From: an uncultured archaeon
Lineage (GTDB): Archaea; Iainarchaeota; Iainarchaeia; Iainarchaeales; Iainarchaeaceae
Length of the DNA stretch: 64,000 nucleotides
NCBI GenBank assembly: GCA_964373815.1
Contig: CAYJWI010000001.1
Location: forward strand, 7,885-71,884
Direction: 5' to 3'
Positions 7,776 to 28,410 of this stretch are shown here, piece after piece; position 1 is the stretch's first letter; each line of letters starts with the position of its first letter. The notes below the pieces were generated by a model that saw only the letters and a program-made list of their open reading frames with translations, ran no database searches and was not told where the DNA came from. A program made the position numbers and the translations under genes.

Positions 7776-8246
7776 TCACAAATGCTGCTTTATCTGCTTT
7801 TGCCATGCGAGCAGTTCCGCCTCTTCGCCTTTCCTCGAGCCGGGCGCAATCTTGAGGCCATCCCCCTTGAACCGCGGGATGATGTGGAAATGTATGTGGT
7901 GTATTACCTGCCCCGCGGCTTCGCGGTTGTTTTGCAGCACGTTAAACCCGTCCGCCTTCGTCGCCTTCATCGCCGCCGCGCCGATTTTCTGCACAACGCG
8001 GATGAGTTCCTTGAGCTCGATTTCAGGGATGTCGAGCATTGTCGCATAATGGTTTTTCGATATGACAAGGCAGTGGCCTTTCGAGGCCGGGTAAATATCC
8101 AGAAAGCTCAAGGCGCTCTCATCCTCATAGAGCCTTGTTGAAGGTATCTTCCCTTCGGCTATTTTGCAGAAAATGCAATCGTCCAAATCAACACCTAAAT
8201 TACGCTTACGCCGATGATTATTTAACTCAACGCTGAGAGCCAGCAA
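7776..8246 (-). CDS. HIT (histidine triad) family hydrolase
   Basis: CIFCKI near the N-terminus and the HIT motif HHIHFHIIPR. The true start may lie downstream of the ORF-track start. Confidence 0.8.
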   Translation of the reverse strand: MLALSVELNNHRRKRNLGVDLDDCIFCKIAEGKIPSTRLYEDESALSFLDIYPASKGHCLVISKNHYATMLDIPEIELKELIRVVQKIGAAAMKATKADGFNVLQNNREAAGQVIHHIHFHIIPRFKGDGLKIAPGSRKGEEAELLAWQKQIKQHL

Positions 8247-23622: not shown

Positions 23623-23714
23623 TAGATCACATTTTCAAATATACTCGCGGAGAATTGCTTTATGCCCCATCGGAGACGGGACGACAACTACGCCCTTCCG
23701 AGGCGTTTCTCGGA

Positions 23715-23725
23715 CGCGGAGGACG
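23715..23725. repeat. distal att core (displaced copy of the tRNA-Ser(UGA) 3' end)
   Basis: cgcggaggacg is identical to 25635-25645 and to the genuine tRNA 3' end at 28217-28227. Confidence 0.7.
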
Positions 23726-23803
23726 GAAGATACTACAATCAGTTCAAATCTAGCCTCTGTGGGAATTGTAGAGCAAAGCTCATTTAAACGTGGAAGTTTG
23801 GCA

Positions 23804-25228
23804 TTAAAAGTCTTCCAAATCGTATGCTAGGTATCCTTCGTTTTTTATTTTTTGCTTGTTTTCAATGTGCTTTGCCACTATTCCGCATTTTACAGTGGTT
23901 AGTTTTTTGTTCAAATGGCCGGTTTTGCTTTCAAGGGTTTTCAAAATGCCGAGCGTTTCCTTGTATGACAACTCTTTCCATTTAAATTCGAAAGCGTAAA
24001 AGTTTTTTCCGTCTTTAGCTATACAATCTATTTCGTAGGCGTTTTCGCCTTTTTTTGCCCCGTGTATTGTGCCCCATTGCCTTTTTGCCTCTTTTAAGCC
24101 GAGCTTGTTTTTGAGGAATTCTTTTGCGGGGTTTTCAAAGGCCTTTCCGTAGGTGCTGTTCAGGTTGTTTTTGAGGTTTTCAATGAATTCCGGTTTTCTT
24201 GCGGCATAATCCGAATAATTCTTGTATATTTGCGAGAACCAGAATTGAATCAGGGGGTGTTTTATTTTGTAGATTCCCCTTTTTCCCTCGAATGGCATTT
24301 CGAATTCAATCAGTTCGAAGTAGTCCCTGAGTTCTTTTATTTGCCTTGTGATTGAGGTGGGGTTTATGTTCATTGTGCCTGCGATTGTGGATATGGTGTT
24401 GTTTCCGTTCGCTATTGCCTCTAAAATGGAGTAGTATACTCCGCTTCTTCCGCCGAATTCTTGGGATAGTATGCTGTTTACTTCATCTTCCAGTGCGGCG
24501 CCTTTTGAGAGCAGTAATGAATCCAGTATTTCCGCTGTTTTTTTCCCTTCCAACCTGAAGTCCTCAATTGAAACGAAGTATTTTGGGTATCCGCCGAAAA
24601 TGCAGTAAAATTTTACCAGTTCCTCCTTGTCAAGCTTCAATTCTTTTGCAAGTTCCAGGCATGAATTCACACTTAGGGCTTCGAGCTTAATCCCTTTCTT
24701 TATCCTTCCGTATAGGGCTTCTTTGGAGTTTTTGAACAGGTTCTTCATCAGTCCTATCAATGAGCCTGAGAGAATCACGAGCCCGGGGTTGTTTTCGTTC
24801 AAATCAATGTTTTTTTGCATTATCCCGAAAACTGCGGGTTCTACAAAACCAAAATTCTGGAATTCATCAAAAACCATTGGGGGGGAGTTCCTTTTTCCAA
24901 GAACTTCAAAGAACTTGTCCCAGGAATCCACACTTTCGAGTTCTCCCAAAATATTGCTTTTTCTCAAAATTTCCTGAAATTCTGCCAAGAGATCATTTGA
25001 TGTCTTGCTCTTGTTCACAAAAAAATACAAGCCGTCTTTTCCATAACCATGCCCCGTTCCATCAACAGAACCGTGGCCAGAACCTATTACGCGAAGAAAT
25101 TCAAATAAAAGCCTAGTTTTTCCAACCCTTCGTAGGCCATACAAAGCCACGACAAAAAGCTTTTTGCGGGAAAGCGCTTCAATTTCATGGAGTTCTTTTA
25201 GTTCCGCAACCCTGTCCACAAACTTCAT
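23804..25228 (-). CDS. archaeal-type AAA ATPase with C-terminal DUF234 (PD-(D/E)xK-like) domain
   Basis: 474-aa ORF. Walker A-like LYGLRRVGKTRLL, Walker B-like PPMVFDEFQ, wHTH region, and C-terminal YEIDCIAKDGKNFYAFEFKW. Confidence 0.8.
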   Translation of the reverse strand: MKFVDRVAELKELHEIEALSRKKLFVVALYGLRRVGKTRLLFEFLRVIGSGHGSVDGTGHGYGKDGLYFFVNKSKTSNDLLAEFQEILRKSNILGELESVDSWDKFFEVLGKRNSPPMVFDEFQNFGFVEPAVFGIMQKNIDLNENNPGLVILSGSLIGLMKNLFKNSKEALYGRIKKGIKLEALSVNSCLELAKELKLDKEELVKFYCIFGGYPKYFVSIEDFRLEGKKTAEILDSLLLSKGAALEDEVNSILSQEFGGRSGVYYSILEAIANGNNTISTIAGTMNINPTSITRQIKELRDYFELIEFEMPFEGKRGIYKIKHPLIQFWFSQIYKNYSDYAARKPEFIENLKNNLNSTYGKAFENPAKEFLKNKLGLKEAKRQWGTIHGAKKGENAYEIDCIAKDGKNFYAFEFKWKELSYKETLGILKTLESKTGHLNKKLTTVKCGIVAKHIENKQKIKNEGYLAYDLEDF

Positions 25229-25401
25229 ATATATTCACCAACTGAATTATTCAGTGACTGAATACATATTTAAACTTATCTTGGGCTAAAAATCGTTACA
25301 TTTTTGTAACGAAAATGGCTTATTTTGTTACACTTTTGTAACGCTTGTATCTGTTAAACAGATAATATATAAAGCCGGCGAATATATGCCAAATTCTGGT
25401 A

Positions 25402-25554
25402 TCAGAAATCTGCTAAGCTCCGTTGTTTCTCGTTTGTGCCACTTTGGATTTTGGCCTTGACTGTATTTATGCATTGCCGGCCCCTTTTGTGCATGTCATA
25501 CTCCTGATCGAATACCGAGAAGTCGAATTGCTCTTGCTTTGTAATTTCTTGCAT
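25402..25554 (-). CDS. 50-aa ORF sharing its promoter and first 34 codons with 27945..28136
   Basis: The N-terminus MQEITKQEQFDFSVFDQEYDMHKRGRQCINTVKA is encoded inside the 194-bp repeat, and the sequence diverges afterwards. Below the track size cut-off. Confidence 0.35.
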   Translation of the reverse strand: MQEITKQEQFDFSVFDQEYDMHKRGRQCINTVKAKIQSGTNEKQRSLADF

Positions 25555-25645
25555 TTTTTGGTTCCCCGAAAGATTATAGTCCTCCGCTAACGTGGACGCT
25601 TATTATACTTTCGGATTCGAACTGAATGCATACTCGCGGAGGACG
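25452..25645. repeat. 194-bp exact direct repeat, copy 1 (element right arm plus att core)
   Basis: Identical to 28034-28227, offset 2,582 bp at both ends. Confidence 0.9.
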
Positions 25646-25881
25646 TAAGATACTACAATCAGTTCAAATCTATCTCTTTGTCATATACCTATAGCGATGT
25701 TTTTTTAAGAGCTTTTGAGAAAGTTCGGCTTTCGATGGTAAAAACTGCCCGAATTTTGCGTGTGGGTTTTTGCCCTAAATTGAACATTTTTAATCTTATC
25801 CACAGGGATATGATATAGTGGGGTTCTGCTTTGGGGGCAGTTATATTAACCTGAAAATGCCTTTTAAGGGTTGATTTGACT

Positions 25882-26817
25882 ATGCAGGGTGAAGAGACGG
25901 CGCAAACTGTCAGGGGCTTGTTAATTGCTATTGCGGAGATTGATGAGCTCAAGAGGGGCGGCAAGGCCTTTTTATCCGAGACGTGGTTTCATAAGCTGCT
26001 CTATGATTTGAAGCGGCGAGTTGATGATAGGGAAATTAAGGGTGCGCTCCAGTTCTATTGGTATATCCACGGCCCTTTTTCTGAGGACGTACGCTACGAG
26101 CTGCAAACCTTGGTCGAGGAGAAAGTTTTTGAATCTAATTCGACTTTCAGCGGCAACGCTTACCGATTGAAGGTAAAGCCCAAGAGGGCTGAGTCAAAGG
26201 GTCTGGTTGTTGCAGGAAAGGTTTTGAAACAGATTTATGCGGAAATCAATCCTTACAATTTGAAGTCTTTGATGAAGACGATTTATTTGGAGGCCCCTTA
26301 CAAGTTCATGCCACAGTATAAATTCAGTTATTTGGATGGCCTCAAGGATTTGAAGATGTTTATCGAACAAGATGAGAGCAAAAAATTCATAGAGGAGTAC
26401 AAGGCTAAAGTAATTGACAATCTTTATGAAGCTGAAATCCTCCTGCCATCACACAAATTATACGCCACTTACAACCAAGTTTTTGGGAATATGGTTGGAG
26501 AAATAACTGCCCTATTGGCTCTATCCGACCAGCATGGCATTTATGCTATTGAAAGTGCCATCAAACTTAGTGAAGAAGCTTGGGAGTGTTTTGCAAAGGG
26601 CGTGAGGATAGAAAATCATGACCCTGCATACGCCCACAGAAAAGAGGCGTGGGGTAAAAATTTTGAAGACTCTCTAAGCGGGTTTGCTAATATGCTAGCA
26701 CTATTCAGCCAACAGCAACTAAAAAACATGAGTGGTTACACAACAAAAACAACCCAAGAGCCGCCCCATTCAATAGGAGTCATGCGTGCAATTGTCTTGG
26801 GTTATCTCAATGAATGA
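25882..26817 (+). CDS. hypothetical protein with a weak Panacea/DUF4065-like N-terminus
   Basis: About 311 aa. WFHKLLYDL...YWYIHGPFSEDV resembles the DUF4065 core. The rest is helical with no motif. Overlaps the downstream PIN-like gene by 8 nt. Confidence 0.45.
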   Translation: MQGEETAQTVRGLLIAIAEIDELKRGGKAFLSETWFHKLLYDLKRRVDDREIKGALQFYWYIHGPFSEDVRYELQTLVEEKVFESNSTFSGNAYRLKVKPKRAESKGLVVAGKVLKQIYAEINPYNLKSLMKTIYLEAPYKFMPQYKFSYLDGLKDLKMFIEQDESKKFIEEYKAKVIDNLYEAEILLPSHKLYATYNQVFGNMVGEITALLALSDQHGIYAIESAIKLSEEAWECFAKGVRIENHDPAYAHRKEAWGKNFEDSLSGFANMLALFSQQQLKNMSGYTTKTTQEPPHSIGVMRAIVLGYLNE

Positions 26818-27523
26818 AAACAAGGAGCACTTTCTGGACACAAGCGTAATGCTTGCTAGGGTTACTTACTGGAAGCCCGAGGACGCGCATAGGAACGCGA
26901 AGAAGTATTTTCTGGATTCGCGCTACAACAAGTGCACCAGCATTCGCGTTGTCGGGGAAGCCAAAGGGGTAATGAACTCATCGAGGCAGGTTATTGGAAA
27001 GGCTTTGCTCTGGCTCTTTGAGAACCAGTCCGGCATGTCTGCTATGAATTTTGAGGGCTGGGCTGTACGCGCAACTAGTGGCTTGTTCGACAGGCCTTTT
27101 GAGCAGAGGATTTGCAAATCGTTCATCCAGAACTGTGGCCCGGATATACTTTCGGCTATTTCGGGAAGCAGGGAAAACCTTGACCAGTTCCTTGGGAAAA
27201 TCCGTTCCGAGATTGGGCACAGCTACAATGACTTGCAGACCTTGTGCGCGAACAACCCTGGGTCGGCAATTGCAAGGCATGATGACTGTCCTGTAACCTA
27301 CACCTCCATGTACTCGGGCGAATTCCAGGCTATATCTACTGCCCTGAACCACGACAAGGATTCTCTCATAGTGATGGATTCATACTTCGTTTCAAAGAAA
27401 ATCCGGCAGCGGGTTTCCCTGGTTACGCTTGACAGGGAGCACATGCTCTCAAACAAAGCCAAAATAGAGGCTGCCCTTTCAACCGTAAAGGTCTGCGATT
27501 TCGGCGCTTACCAGTCTCAGTAA
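26810..27523 (+). CDS. PIN-like domain protein
   Basis: Start taken at MNENKEH. FLDTSVM (first acidic residue), VVGEAKG, VMDSYF and LVTLDREH give PIN-like spacing of acidic residues around a large helical insert. Confidence 0.45.
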   Translation: MNENKEHFLDTSVMLARVTYWKPEDAHRNAKKYFLDSRYNKCTSIRVVGEAKGVMNSSRQVIGKALLWLFENQSGMSAMNFEGWAVRATSGLFDRPFEQRICKSFIQNCGPDILSAISGSRENLDQFLGKIRSEIGHSYNDLQTLCANNPGSAIARHDDCPVTYTSMYSGEFQAISTALNHDKDSLIVMDSYFVSKKIRQRVSLVTLDREHMLSNKAKIEAALSTVKVCDFGAYQSQ

Positions 27524-27948
27524 TCGTTTTCTCCTGTCTGGTTCGCGTTCCATTCAATCCGCTTTATTACCGGATATTTTGGCCGACCATACGGCTTGCG
27601 TTTGCGCTTTTCCCGGCGCTCCGGAATGCTTACAGCTTCACCATCTTCGAGAATAAATTTTCCGATGCAGGTTCTTTTTCCTGCCTTGCTTCTCCATGGT
27701 TTGAGGTAGTATCTTTCCTTTCGTTGGTTGCTGTAAGCGTACTGTGGCCGGCCCACTTTATTTTTCCGATTCTTTCTTTTTTGCGTATAGCTCGCATAGC
27801 AATAGCTCCAGAGGTAGTAAACCCCGTCTGGAAATTCTCCGAAGGTTTGCTCGAGCCAGTTCCTGAAGTCGATTTTATCCGTCCATCGGTTCACTGGGAA
27901 ATCTTCGGGCGGAATTTCTGCGAGCGGGTTGCTCAAGTCAACCATCAT
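27517..27948 (-). CDS. highly basic hypothetical protein
   Basis: 143-aa ORF rich in K, R and Y (KRKNRKNKVGRPQYAY, ERREKRKRKPYGRPKYP). Start overlaps the upstream 63-aa ORF by 4 nt. Confidence 0.5.
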   Translation of the reverse strand: MMVDLSNPLAEIPPEDFPVNRWTDKIDFRNWLEQTFGEFPDGVYYLWSYCYASYTQKRKNRKNKVGRPQYAYSNQRKERYYLKPWRSKAGKRTCIGKFILEDGEAVSIPERREKRKRKPYGRPKYPVIKRIEWNANQTGENDY

Positions 27949-28136
27949 GGGCCAGCCGGATAGGTTCTTTGTTTTTTGAGTTGATGGGGGCGCCGGCCAT
28001 ACAAAGAGTCGATGTCAAGCCTGTTTTGTTCTATGGCCTTGACTGTATTTATGCATTGCCGGCCCCTTTTGTGCATGTCATACTCCTGATCGAATACCGA
28101 GAAGTCGAATTGCTCTTGCTTTGTAATTTCTTGCAT
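27945..28136 (-). CDS. 63-aa hypothetical protein
   Basis: Its N-terminal 34 codons and upstream region lie inside the 194-bp repeat. Translationally coupled to the basic protein gene. Confidence 0.45.
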   Translation of the reverse strand: MQEITKQEQFDFSVFDQEYDMHKRGRQCINTVKAIEQNRLDIDSLYGRRPHQLKKQRTYPAGP

Positions 28137-28227
28137 TTTTTGGTTCCCCGAAAGATTATAGTCCTCCGCTAACGTGGACGCTTATTATACTTTCGGATTC
28201 GAACTGAATGCATACTCGCGGAGGACG
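28034..28227. repeat. 194-bp exact direct repeat, copy 2
   Basis: Identical to 25452-25645. The last 11 nt are tRNA-Ser(UGA) positions 63-73. Confidence 0.9.
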
Positions 28228-28300
28228 AGATTCGAACTCGCGCCCCCTTTCGGGGACCTGGTCTCAAGCCAGGCGCGTTGGACCGCTCCGCCACCTCCGC
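28217..28300 (-). tRNA. tRNA-Ser(UGA), class II
   Basis: GCGGAGG-TG-GCG..CGC-G-CCTGG-CTTGAGA-CCAGG, variable arm TCCCCGAAAGGGGGC, GCGAG-TTCGAAT-CTCGT, CCTCCGC-G. 84 nt. Confidence 0.85.
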
Positions 28301-28410
28301 AATTTTTTTCTTTCTCTTGGGAAGAAAAGAAACCCTCACAAACATATGTTTGTGGGGCACAGCAGAATAAAAATTCTGCTGTGAAACGTTGATTAAAAAA
28401 GAAAAGAAAC
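28301..28410. repeat. tRNA-flanking polypyrimidine/polypurine element, copy 2
   Basis: TTTTTTTCTTTCTCTTGGGAAGAAAAGAAA (28303-28331) and AAACGTTGATTAAAAAAGAAAAGAAAC (28384-28410). Two strong hairpins lie between them, CCTCACAAACATATGTTTGTGGGG and CACAGCAGAATAAAAATTCTGCTGTG. Confidence 0.6.

Follow-up and report, generated by a model that had tools for sequence, protein, structure and literature searches.

The tRNA-Ser(UGA) locus and its two tandem units

We analysed a stretch of 64,000 nucleotides (nt), referred to below as the window, from the genome of an uncultured DPANN archaeon of the Iainarchaeota lineage (contig CAYJWI010000001.1 of assembly GCA_964373815.1, forward-strand positions 7,885 to 71,884). 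The source genome measures 1.1 Mb and is 89% complete, and coordinates given without a locus name are those of the window. Two adjoining units, here called E1 and E2, lie at the 3' end of a tRNA-Ser(UGA) gene. E2, the subject of this report, contains four open reading frames (ORFs), two per strand, which form overlapping pairs and are located exactly where a preliminary description of the sequence had placed them. The plus-strand ORFs constitute a conserved two-gene module, the minus-strand ORFs appear to be the remnants of an integrase gene and of a mobile-element backbone gene, and E2 as a whole is best explained as a deletion derivative of a tyrosine-integrase element. The features on which this interpretation is built are the following, with protein lengths in amino acids (aa):

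25646-25881, plus strand: distal end of E2, with the 26-nt distal arm (25647-25672) and the upstream/promoter region of the 311-aa gene
25882-26817, plus strand: 311-aa ORF, putative antitoxin or sensor (ORF list and sequence; alignment, model, fold search and links to the PF13274 profile)
26810-27523, plus strand: 237-aa ORF, PIN-like putative toxin or nuclease (ORF list and sequence; acidic quartet, PF01850 matches and a VapC hidden Markov model, HMM)
27517-27948, minus strand: 143-aa basic ORF (ORF list; isoelectric point 9.7, 30 lysines plus arginines)
27517-27975, minus strand: putative 5'-truncated basic beta-sheet gene that includes the annotated 143-aa ORF, with homology for 9 codons beyond its ATG
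27945-28136, minus strand: 63-aa ORF, overlapping the start of the 143-aa ORF by ATGA; residues 1-39 match an integrase N-terminus and residues 40-63 run out of frame over the putative 5' remnant of the basic gene
28025-28216, minus strand: tRNA-proximal arm of E2, identical to 25443-25634 of E1
28216-28301, minus strand: tRNA-Ser(UGA), identified with ARAGORN
23715-23725, 25635-25645 (E1/E2 junction) and 28217-28227: copies of the attachment (att) core, by pattern count
25402-25554, minus strand: 50-aa ORF of E1, putative copy of the integrase stump, with 34 codons in common with the 63-aa ORF followed by 16 unrelated codons

The att core, CGCGGAGGACG, corresponds to the last 11 nt of tRNA-Ser(UGA) on plus-strand positions 28217-28227. 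It was found exactly three times in the window, at 23715, 25635 and 28217 (0.01 copies are expected by chance in 64 kb), and the three cores delimit the two units, E1 at 23726-25645 and E2 at 25646-28227. Direct repeats of the tRNA 3' end flank E2, as in tyrosine-integrase elements located at tRNA genes. Two copies of the 26-nt distal arm, at 23727 and 25647, were counted in the window against a chance expectation of 0, and the tRNA-side ends of both units are also alike: the proximal arm at 25443-25645 equals that at 28025-28227, with 100% identity over 194 nt. In E2 this proximal arm contains a TATA-like promoter, the first 34 codons of the putative integrase stump and an inverted copy of the core. 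The DNA that follows the tRNA gene at E2 resembles the junction between tRNA-Ser(CGA) and an integrase gene at another locus, L110. At the opposite end of E2, the TATA-like sequence GTTATATTAA is located ~30 nt ahead of the ATG of the 311-aa gene and is its putative promoter. The 50-aa ORF of E1 had been reported as a paralogue of the 63-aa ORF, and it does begin with the same 34 codons.

The two minus-strand reading frames

Residues 1-39 of the 63-aa ORF matched the N-termini of open frames of ~380-406 aa in seven genomes of the order when the phylum was searched in six frames (E 6e-8 to 4e-3 per genome). These ~400-aa frames are in turn similar to integrases in BLASTP comparisons (5.6e-10 to the PF00589-bearing integrase of locus L008 and 2.4e-8 to that of L003), carry an NDTGARISE box and matched XerH in a search of the PDB (E 9e-4), and they are tyrosine recombinases. 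In L110 the integrase starts ~55 nt past tRNA-Ser(CGA), and the intervening DNA resembles the start of the E1/E2 arm. The alignment gave the consensus [LF]D[LF][ST]VF..E[FY]D.H.RG[RK]QC...[IV][KQ][AG][IL].[EQ]NR, and the homology to integrases extends to residue 39 (IEQNR) in E2 and to codon 34 in E1. As judged from these alignments, the 63-aa ORF is the N-terminal stump of an integrase gene, of ~39 codons in E2 and 34 in E1, from which the whole catalytic domain is gone. No intact integrase gene was found in E2, only this stump of 34-39 codons. The preliminary description had considered the small ORF as a candidate for an unrecognised recombination function; its origin in a recombination gene holds, but the stump has no catalytic domain.

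Two other assignments of the 63-aa ORF were rejected. One made it the N-terminus that the basic family described below has lost, but the family HMM was silent in that frame; as the N-terminus of an L018-type integrase it reached an HMM score of -1.5 bits, equalled by 346 of 500 shuffled sequences, with nothing found by blastp-short. Peptide patterns detected no relatives of the ORF in metagenome contigs. We also observed that the L110 integrase is matched best, among PDB sequences, by 9i5v chain 14 (E 3.8e-7, 401 aa), which is labelled 'ribosome-associated translation inhibitor RaiA'; this label seems at odds with a match over the recombinase region.

Concerning the 143-aa basic ORF, a word-indexed search gave one relative, and an exhaustive profile search recovered 19 family representatives (P0002 and 18 others), typically of 170-190 aa, the closest of which show 43-55% identity with the E2 ORF. 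Of the 186 positions of the family profile, only 29-183 align with E2; the aligned region starts 9 codons ahead of the ATG, and an in-frame stop lies before it at 28015-28017. The N-terminal family motif was absent upstream of the ORF in every frame, and the E2 copy differs from the family in being without the N-terminal ~28 positions. In the model of a full-length member (predicted local distance difference test, pLDDT, 82.9; predicted template modelling score, pTM, 0.76), residues 2-5 and 11-18 are beta-strands with pLDDT above 90. Since these N-terminal strands are modelled with confidence, the E2 copy would be without part of the core. A full-length basic protein with the two N-terminal strands was not found in E2, and the 143-aa ORF is, on the alignment and the model, a 5'-truncated (headless) copy of an orphan family of mobile-element backbone genes. 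A member of the family that had appeared short turned out to have a mis-called start.

No library names this family. It has no relative in Pfam, PHROG, NCBIfam or among the PDB sequences, tblastn gave no match in phage and plasmid collections, and a fold search with the model found no neighbour in the PDB or BFVD. Members are present in 3 of the 215 genomes of the phylum. The full-length copies are placed downstream of large replication-type nucleoside triphosphatases (NTPases) in small elements located at tRNA genes and equipped with integrases; the upstream NTPase is AAA_25 primase/helicase-like in L017 and L061, a 588-aa P-loop protein in L060 and a 559-aa MTBMA_p00010-like protein in L003. 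The L018 element is bounded by a repeat of the tRNA-Leu 3' end, and its integrase begins 62 nt past the tRNA. The basic gene of the full-length elements is not adjacent to the integrase start.

In E2 the homology to integrases ends at ~28020 and the homology to the basic gene, with its upstream stop, starts at 28015-27975, that is, the two remnants abut. The simplest history would be one deletion from integrase codon ~40 to approximately position 20-28 of the basic gene. The truncation of the E1 stump at codon 34 is independent of that of E2.

The plus-strand gene pair

Relatives were found for both plus-strand proteins, seven for the 311-aa protein and eight for the 237-aa protein, all of them in DPANN metagenomes or metagenome-assembled genomes and with identities of 42-81%. 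The two genes overlap by 8 nt in E2 (ATGAATGA) and stand side by side in the same direction, with overlaps of 4-29 nt, in all seven loci that were fetched (L007-L013); the pair is adjacent in 10 of 10 other DPANN loci. In whole-genome scans, either gene was carried by 4 of the 215 genomes of the phylum, both being present and adjacent in each of these four, and neither gene was detected in any of the six other genomes of the genus. Comparison of the window with its closest homologue, L007, revealed homology at 25903-27512 only, i.e. over the pair alone, the rest of E2 being unmatched. Between these two loci the proportion of nonsynonymous differences (pN) was 0.09 for the 311-aa gene and 0.13 for the 237-aa gene, and that of synonymous differences (pS) was 0.77 and 0.80, respectively (pN/pS ~0.12-0.16). 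Because pN is low whereas synonymous sites are saturated, both genes are under purifying selection. The plus-strand ORFs are therefore more than chance ORFs and make up a two-gene mobile module under purifying selection.

The neighbourhoods of the pair usually contain integrases or tRNA genes. A tyrosine integrase is located immediately upstream in L008 and L010, and in L007 an intron-bearing tRNA gene, by eye a tRNA-Cys(GCA), lies 1.7 kb from the pair. In L013 (201-1619 and 4728-6942) the pair is placed between a homologue of the Fsx1/HAP2-GCS1 fusexin and two genes with Fic domains, and in L012 a KaiC-like ATPase stands beside it. No third conserved gene was found alongside the pair. The two genes are adjacent, co-directional and overlapping, always co-occur and move as a unit, which is the gene layout of type II toxin-antitoxin systems. 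Two candidate features of these loci were discarded: an apparent tRNA-Ser match in L007 is low-complexity promoter DNA beside the intron-bearing tRNA, and the ~3-kb contigs that bear the pair are not mini-circles, as they are fragments with other genes (integrase, KaiC-like ATPase).

The elements ETWFHKLL and YWY.HGP[FY]SE are invariant in the alignment of the 311-aa family. In the AlphaFold2 model (pLDDT 72.8) the protein has an N-terminal domain of helices plus a hairpin, a long helical body and a low-confidence C-terminal tail at residues 285-311, which is predicted to be disordered and yet contains the invariant sequence M.AIVLGY.NE. Proteins with the Panacea domain PF13274 occur in 11 of the 215 genomes of the phylum, none of which is one of the four pair-carrying genomes, and we compared the HMM and the alignment of the 311-aa family with bona fide PF13274 proteins from this same phylum. 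The HMM matched three of them with 18-21 bits at positions 24-91 (E 5e-7 to 4e-6 among 66 ORFs), and hhalign aligned the family with a Panacea alignment, in which nine of nine sequences are PF13274 members, over 163 columns with E 1.5e-4. The aligned Panacea elements are a helix K.L[YF] and a strand YGP[YF]S. Conserved elements of Panacea are the alpha2 helix and a GPV-bearing beta2 strand (Kurata et al. 2022, PMC8832971), and the WFHKLL helix and HGP[FY]S strand of the 311-aa protein would be their counterparts. There were also weak matches to the PADLOC candidate PDC-M19A in five of the eight family members and to the DarG model in four of eight. We consider it rather probable, from these profile comparisons, that the N-terminal domain is a divergent Panacea-like domain. 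PanA antitoxins neutralise via the Panacea core or via appended C-terminal linear elements (Ernits et al. 2023, PMC10440598), and the layout of the 311-aa protein, in which a helical body and a conserved flexible tail come after the Panacea-like domain, would fit this mode. As a separate observation, in genome G063 (contig C3, 75775-81153; loci L110 and L074) a stump-type integrase at tRNA-Ser(CGA) is located ~5 kb from a 278-aa bona fide Panacea protein, so that PanA-type cargo may be present in relatives of the E2 parent as well.

In the 237-aa protein, residues D10, E50, D190 and D208 are invariant across eight sequences that share 42-76% identity. These are the four acidic residues of PIN domains in their canonical order and spacing (18 residues from D190 to D208), with an insertion of ~80-90 residues between the second and the third, E50 and D190. 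The C-terminal SL[VI]TLD.EHMLSNK is like the C-terminal motif of VapC. PF01850 was matched by seven of the eight family members at E<=1 (best E 1.6e-5), and two homologues have a precomputed match to it. An HMM of canonical VapC proteins from the same taxonomic family aligned with the N-terminal 70 residues (E 8.6e-6 to 0.014) and put the catalytic D and E of the local VapC proteins in register with D10 and E50. PDB sequence searches gave no match for the PIN-like protein or for the 311-aa protein. We regard a PIN-like identity of the 237-aa protein as probable. Canonical PIN (PF01850) genes number at least 12 at E<=1e-8 in the source genome and 10-18 in several relatives, which is many given the small size of the genome.

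The preliminary description had presented the upstream protein as weakly Panacea/DUF4065-like at its N-terminus, the downstream one as PIN-like and the pair as an addiction or defence module. The first resemblance is visible via the Panacea profiles of the phylum itself and not via Pfam; the second agrees with the acidic quartet, the PF01850 matches of the family and the VapC HMM; and a role as mobile cargo fits the strict adjacency, the patchy distribution and the mobile-element neighbourhoods. The pair is most likely, to judge from its layout and its domains, type II toxin-antitoxin or defence cargo and, as such, a divergent new addition to the toxin-antitoxin and defence systems of the PanA/VapC type. 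In a toxin-antitoxin or abortive-defence pair of this kind, the toxin would most likely be the PIN-like nuclease, with D/E/D/D as its site, and the 311-aa protein would neutralise it, probably through the invariant flexible tail or the helical body, and the Panacea-like, winged-helix-like domain may take part in sensing or autoregulation.

Origin of E2, alternative readings and known systems

We propose that a parent tyrosine-integrase element would have inserted into the tRNA-Ser(UGA) 3' end of a DPANN (Iainarchaeota-like) archaeon, its probable order being tRNA, integrase, replication module, basic gene, cargo and attR. A single deletion would have removed the recombinase body and the replication genes, joining integrase codon ~40 to the basic gene. 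The 63-aa ORF would be the product of this junction, still under the old integrase promoter, and the 143-aa ORF would be a functionless, headless relic minus two core beta-strands. A toxin-antitoxin module would explain the persistence of such a stranded remnant. The single PF00589 gene of the source genome, a 298-aa open frame on another contig, we regard as Xer-like solely on account of its length and strong score; neither an L018-type integrase nor any other element integrase was found in this 89% complete genome. Depth was equal for E1, E2 and the flanks (28.7, 26.1 and 27.1, respectively, in metagenome run X1), and no excision or circle joints were seen in the contigs of four metagenome runs, contigs being a form of data that hides rare forms. 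E2 as a free or amplified circle was rejected on these two grounds. The DNA of the arms was absent, bar short scraps, from 22 other genomes of the family; no parent element was detected in metagenome contigs by the attP pattern and peptide patterns, and viral contigs searched for it gave nothing. The best explanation of E2, and one that we find likely, is a stranded, integrase-less deletion derivative whose replication module and integrase body have been lost.

Several results weigh against this interpretation of the element and its cargo. Foldseek with the 311-aa model gave weak winged-helix matches only, confined to the first ~100 residues (E 0.2-0.6). No Pfam or NCBIfam Panacea match was obtained for any of the eight family members (PF13274, E<=1; gathering score 25.7), and the hhalign probability of the Panacea match is just 51%. 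Inspection of AlphaFold models, which the preliminary description had suggested as a check on the proteins of E2, thus returned this faint winged-helix signal for the 311-aa protein and, for the basic family, the empty PDB and BFVD searches mentioned above. The PIN-like protein of the window scores 12.7 bits (E 0.2) with PF01850, short of the gathering score of 23.6, and the hhalign match to the local VapC proteins, confined to the N-terminal half, is weak (E 0.0066, probability 6%); the PIN call is therefore based on the HMM hits plus the four acidic residues. Since no parent element turned up, we infer the single-deletion history from the remnants. The basic ORF is still open over 143 codons and ATGA-coupled to a promoter-bearing ORF, and might have a residual or new function. 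Toxicity and neutralisation are predictions, and the nuclease of the pair might be a regulated enzyme with a different task. On a related reading the pair would serve in defence against viruses or plasmids, or as a regulator and its nuclease, the 311-aa protein acting as a sensor or transcription factor and the PIN effector not being toxic alone. The 311-aa protein is indeed far larger than the classical VapB antitoxins, its family has the PDC-M19A and DarG matches (in five and four of eight members), the neighbours include Fic proteins, a fusexin-bearing island and, in E1, a PDC-S27-like ATPase, and the Panacea core has been suggested to act as a sensor (PMC10440598). However, gene order, overlaps of 4-29 nt and strict one-to-one co-occurrence follow the classical type II toxin-antitoxin pattern, and no third conserved gene goes with the pair; we hold this reading to be possible and rather unlikely.

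The minus strand had been read in the preliminary description as a functional, coupled element-maintenance module (att-arm binding, excisionase-like or recombinase), conserved in the E1/E2 family. In favour of this, neither ORF is interrupted and the two share an ATGA overlap, the small ORF has a TATA-like box ahead of it and derives from a recombination gene, and DNA binding by the basic family is plausible from its long lysine/arginine-rich loop and from a confident model that matches nothing in the PDB or BFVD. However, the arms of E1 and E2 are 100% identical DNA, and therefore their conservation is no evidence of selection on a protein. E1 is without the basic gene, the E1 and E2 tails differ past codon 34, the stump has lost the whole catalytic domain of the ~400-aa integrases, the basic gene has lost family positions 1-28, including two core strands, and the full-length elements do not have it adjacent to the integrase start. 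A conserved maintenance module is thus not borne out, its basic gene being absent from one unit and 5'-truncated in the other, and we consider it very improbable. E1 and E2 could also be mini-elements, similar to cis-mobilisable elements (CIMEs) or satellites, that have complete att sites and are moved in trans by the integrase of a relative with the pair as payload. Their perfect cores and identical 26- and 194-nt arms produce a complete attP-like junction between units, they form a tandem array with different cargo, and related integrases exist in the order; yet the 89% complete genome carries no such integrase, depth is equal and no joint was seen in the contigs of the four runs, where rare forms are hidden, and the arm is not in the 22 other family genomes or in metagenome contigs. 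This makes a mobilisable state unlikely. It is improbable, finally, that the headless basic ORF, under the orphaned integrase promoter and coupled to the stump ORF, has been co-opted, for instance to exclude incoming elements of its own family in a dominant-negative manner, with the full-length family a new-fold nucleic-acid-binding protein of the replication module in integrative plasmids or viruses of DPANN archaea and E1/E2 archaeal cis-mobilisable cassettes that swap defence cargo on a common attP arm. A stranded deletion derivative remains our preferred reading of E2.

The cargo of E1 is unrelated to that of E2. The only large gene of E1 (23804-25228, minus strand) encodes an ATPase_2/DUF234 protein with a winged helix that matches the PADLOC defence candidate PDC-S27 (E 5e-29), and the tRNA-Ser locus, with E1 and E2 together, looks like a small defence islet. 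In one X1 contig, 73 nt of the ATPase gene (25024-25098) are swapped for 22 other letters, which is a strain variant or indel allele. In runs X1 and X3 the arm was seen as a contig of 194-210 nt with three substitutions with respect to the window (28090, 28091 and 28101) and a depth of 40.6 in X1 (flanks ~27) and 11.1 in X3; either two arm copies are slightly different in the population or they were collapsed by assembly. A degenerate core-like copy, ACTCGCGGAG, is located at 23626-23657, ~70 nt outside the outer E1 core, and in genome G093 (L019, 1500-1610) the homologous flank of an intron-bearing tRNA-Ser contains 26 nt near-identical to the start of the E1/E2 arm. Both are probably scars of older integrations at tRNA-Ser. 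Related genomes have tRNA genes with introns of ~100-170 nt that were missed by ARAGORN, namely two tRNA-Ser-like genes in L018 (3030-3238 and 4139-4327), a tRNA-Ser in L019 (1595-1760) and the gene in L007 (3957-4175), whose anticodon loop, read by eye, is that of Cys(GCA).

One class for comparison is that of the pNOB8-type (non-partitioning) archaeal tyrosine-integrase elements at tRNA genes, together with decayed or cis-mobilisable derivatives such as the CIMEs of streptococcal integrative and conjugative elements (ICEs). E1 and E2 share with them the insertion at the tRNA 3' end, the short core repeat and the tandem accretion of att-bounded units without a recombinase, and the integrases of L018 and L110 and the putative stump of E2 begin tens of nt past the tRNA, as in pNOB8-type elements. 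In contrast, E1 and E2 keep just 34-39 integrase codons, have identical arms and carry unrelated cargo, and their mobilisation in trans is a proposal.

PanAT systems combine antitoxins of the Panacea/DUF4065/SocA domain with diverse toxins (PMC8832971; PMC10440598). The pair of E2 resembles them in the upstream Panacea-like core (helix K-L-L-[YF], beta-hairpin with GP[FY]), the overlapping putative toxin gene, the extra C-terminal region as a possible linear neutralising element and the location in a mobile element. It differs in a domain too divergent for PF13274 to match (none at E<=1), in ~200 additional helical residues of the protein, in a PIN-like partner that carries a large insertion and in having a DPANN archaeon as host; the texts of PMC8832971 and PMC10440598 make no mention of PanA paired with a PIN protein. 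With VapBC the pair has in common the order of putative antitoxin then toxin, the overlap of the genes, the four acidic PIN residues, LVTLD..H against lvT.D..F of VapC and a putative antitoxin with a conserved flexible C-terminal tail, and canonical VapC genes, at least 12 of them, are likewise encoded in the genome. Unlike VapB, however, the E2 protein is 311 aa long and has a Panacea-like domain instead of an AbrB, ribbon-helix-helix (RHH) or PHD domain, and the PIN-like partner, at 237 aa, has ~80-90 residues inserted between E50 and D190 and a Pfam score below the cut-off.

The locus belongs to a known class, some of its protein families being new; it overturns no current view and provides a useful annotation for a poorly known group. 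What appeared to be an integrase-less family with a conserved ORF resolves, under the preferred reading, into an integrase stump in a deletion derivative, and the element would be stabilised by, or merely carry, a toxin-antitoxin-like pair. The orphan basic family, whose fold is predicted with confidence and is without structural neighbours, serves as a marker for the replication module in small DPANN integrative elements. The tyrosine-integrase clade is linked to tRNA-Ser, with one member directly after tRNA-Ser(CGA) and the stump after tRNA-Ser(UGA), and related elements can be searched for by its N-terminal signature. The DPANN-restricted pairing of a Panacea-like protein with an insertion-bearing PIN-like nuclease would extend the PanA network to highly divergent archaeal members missed by Pfam.

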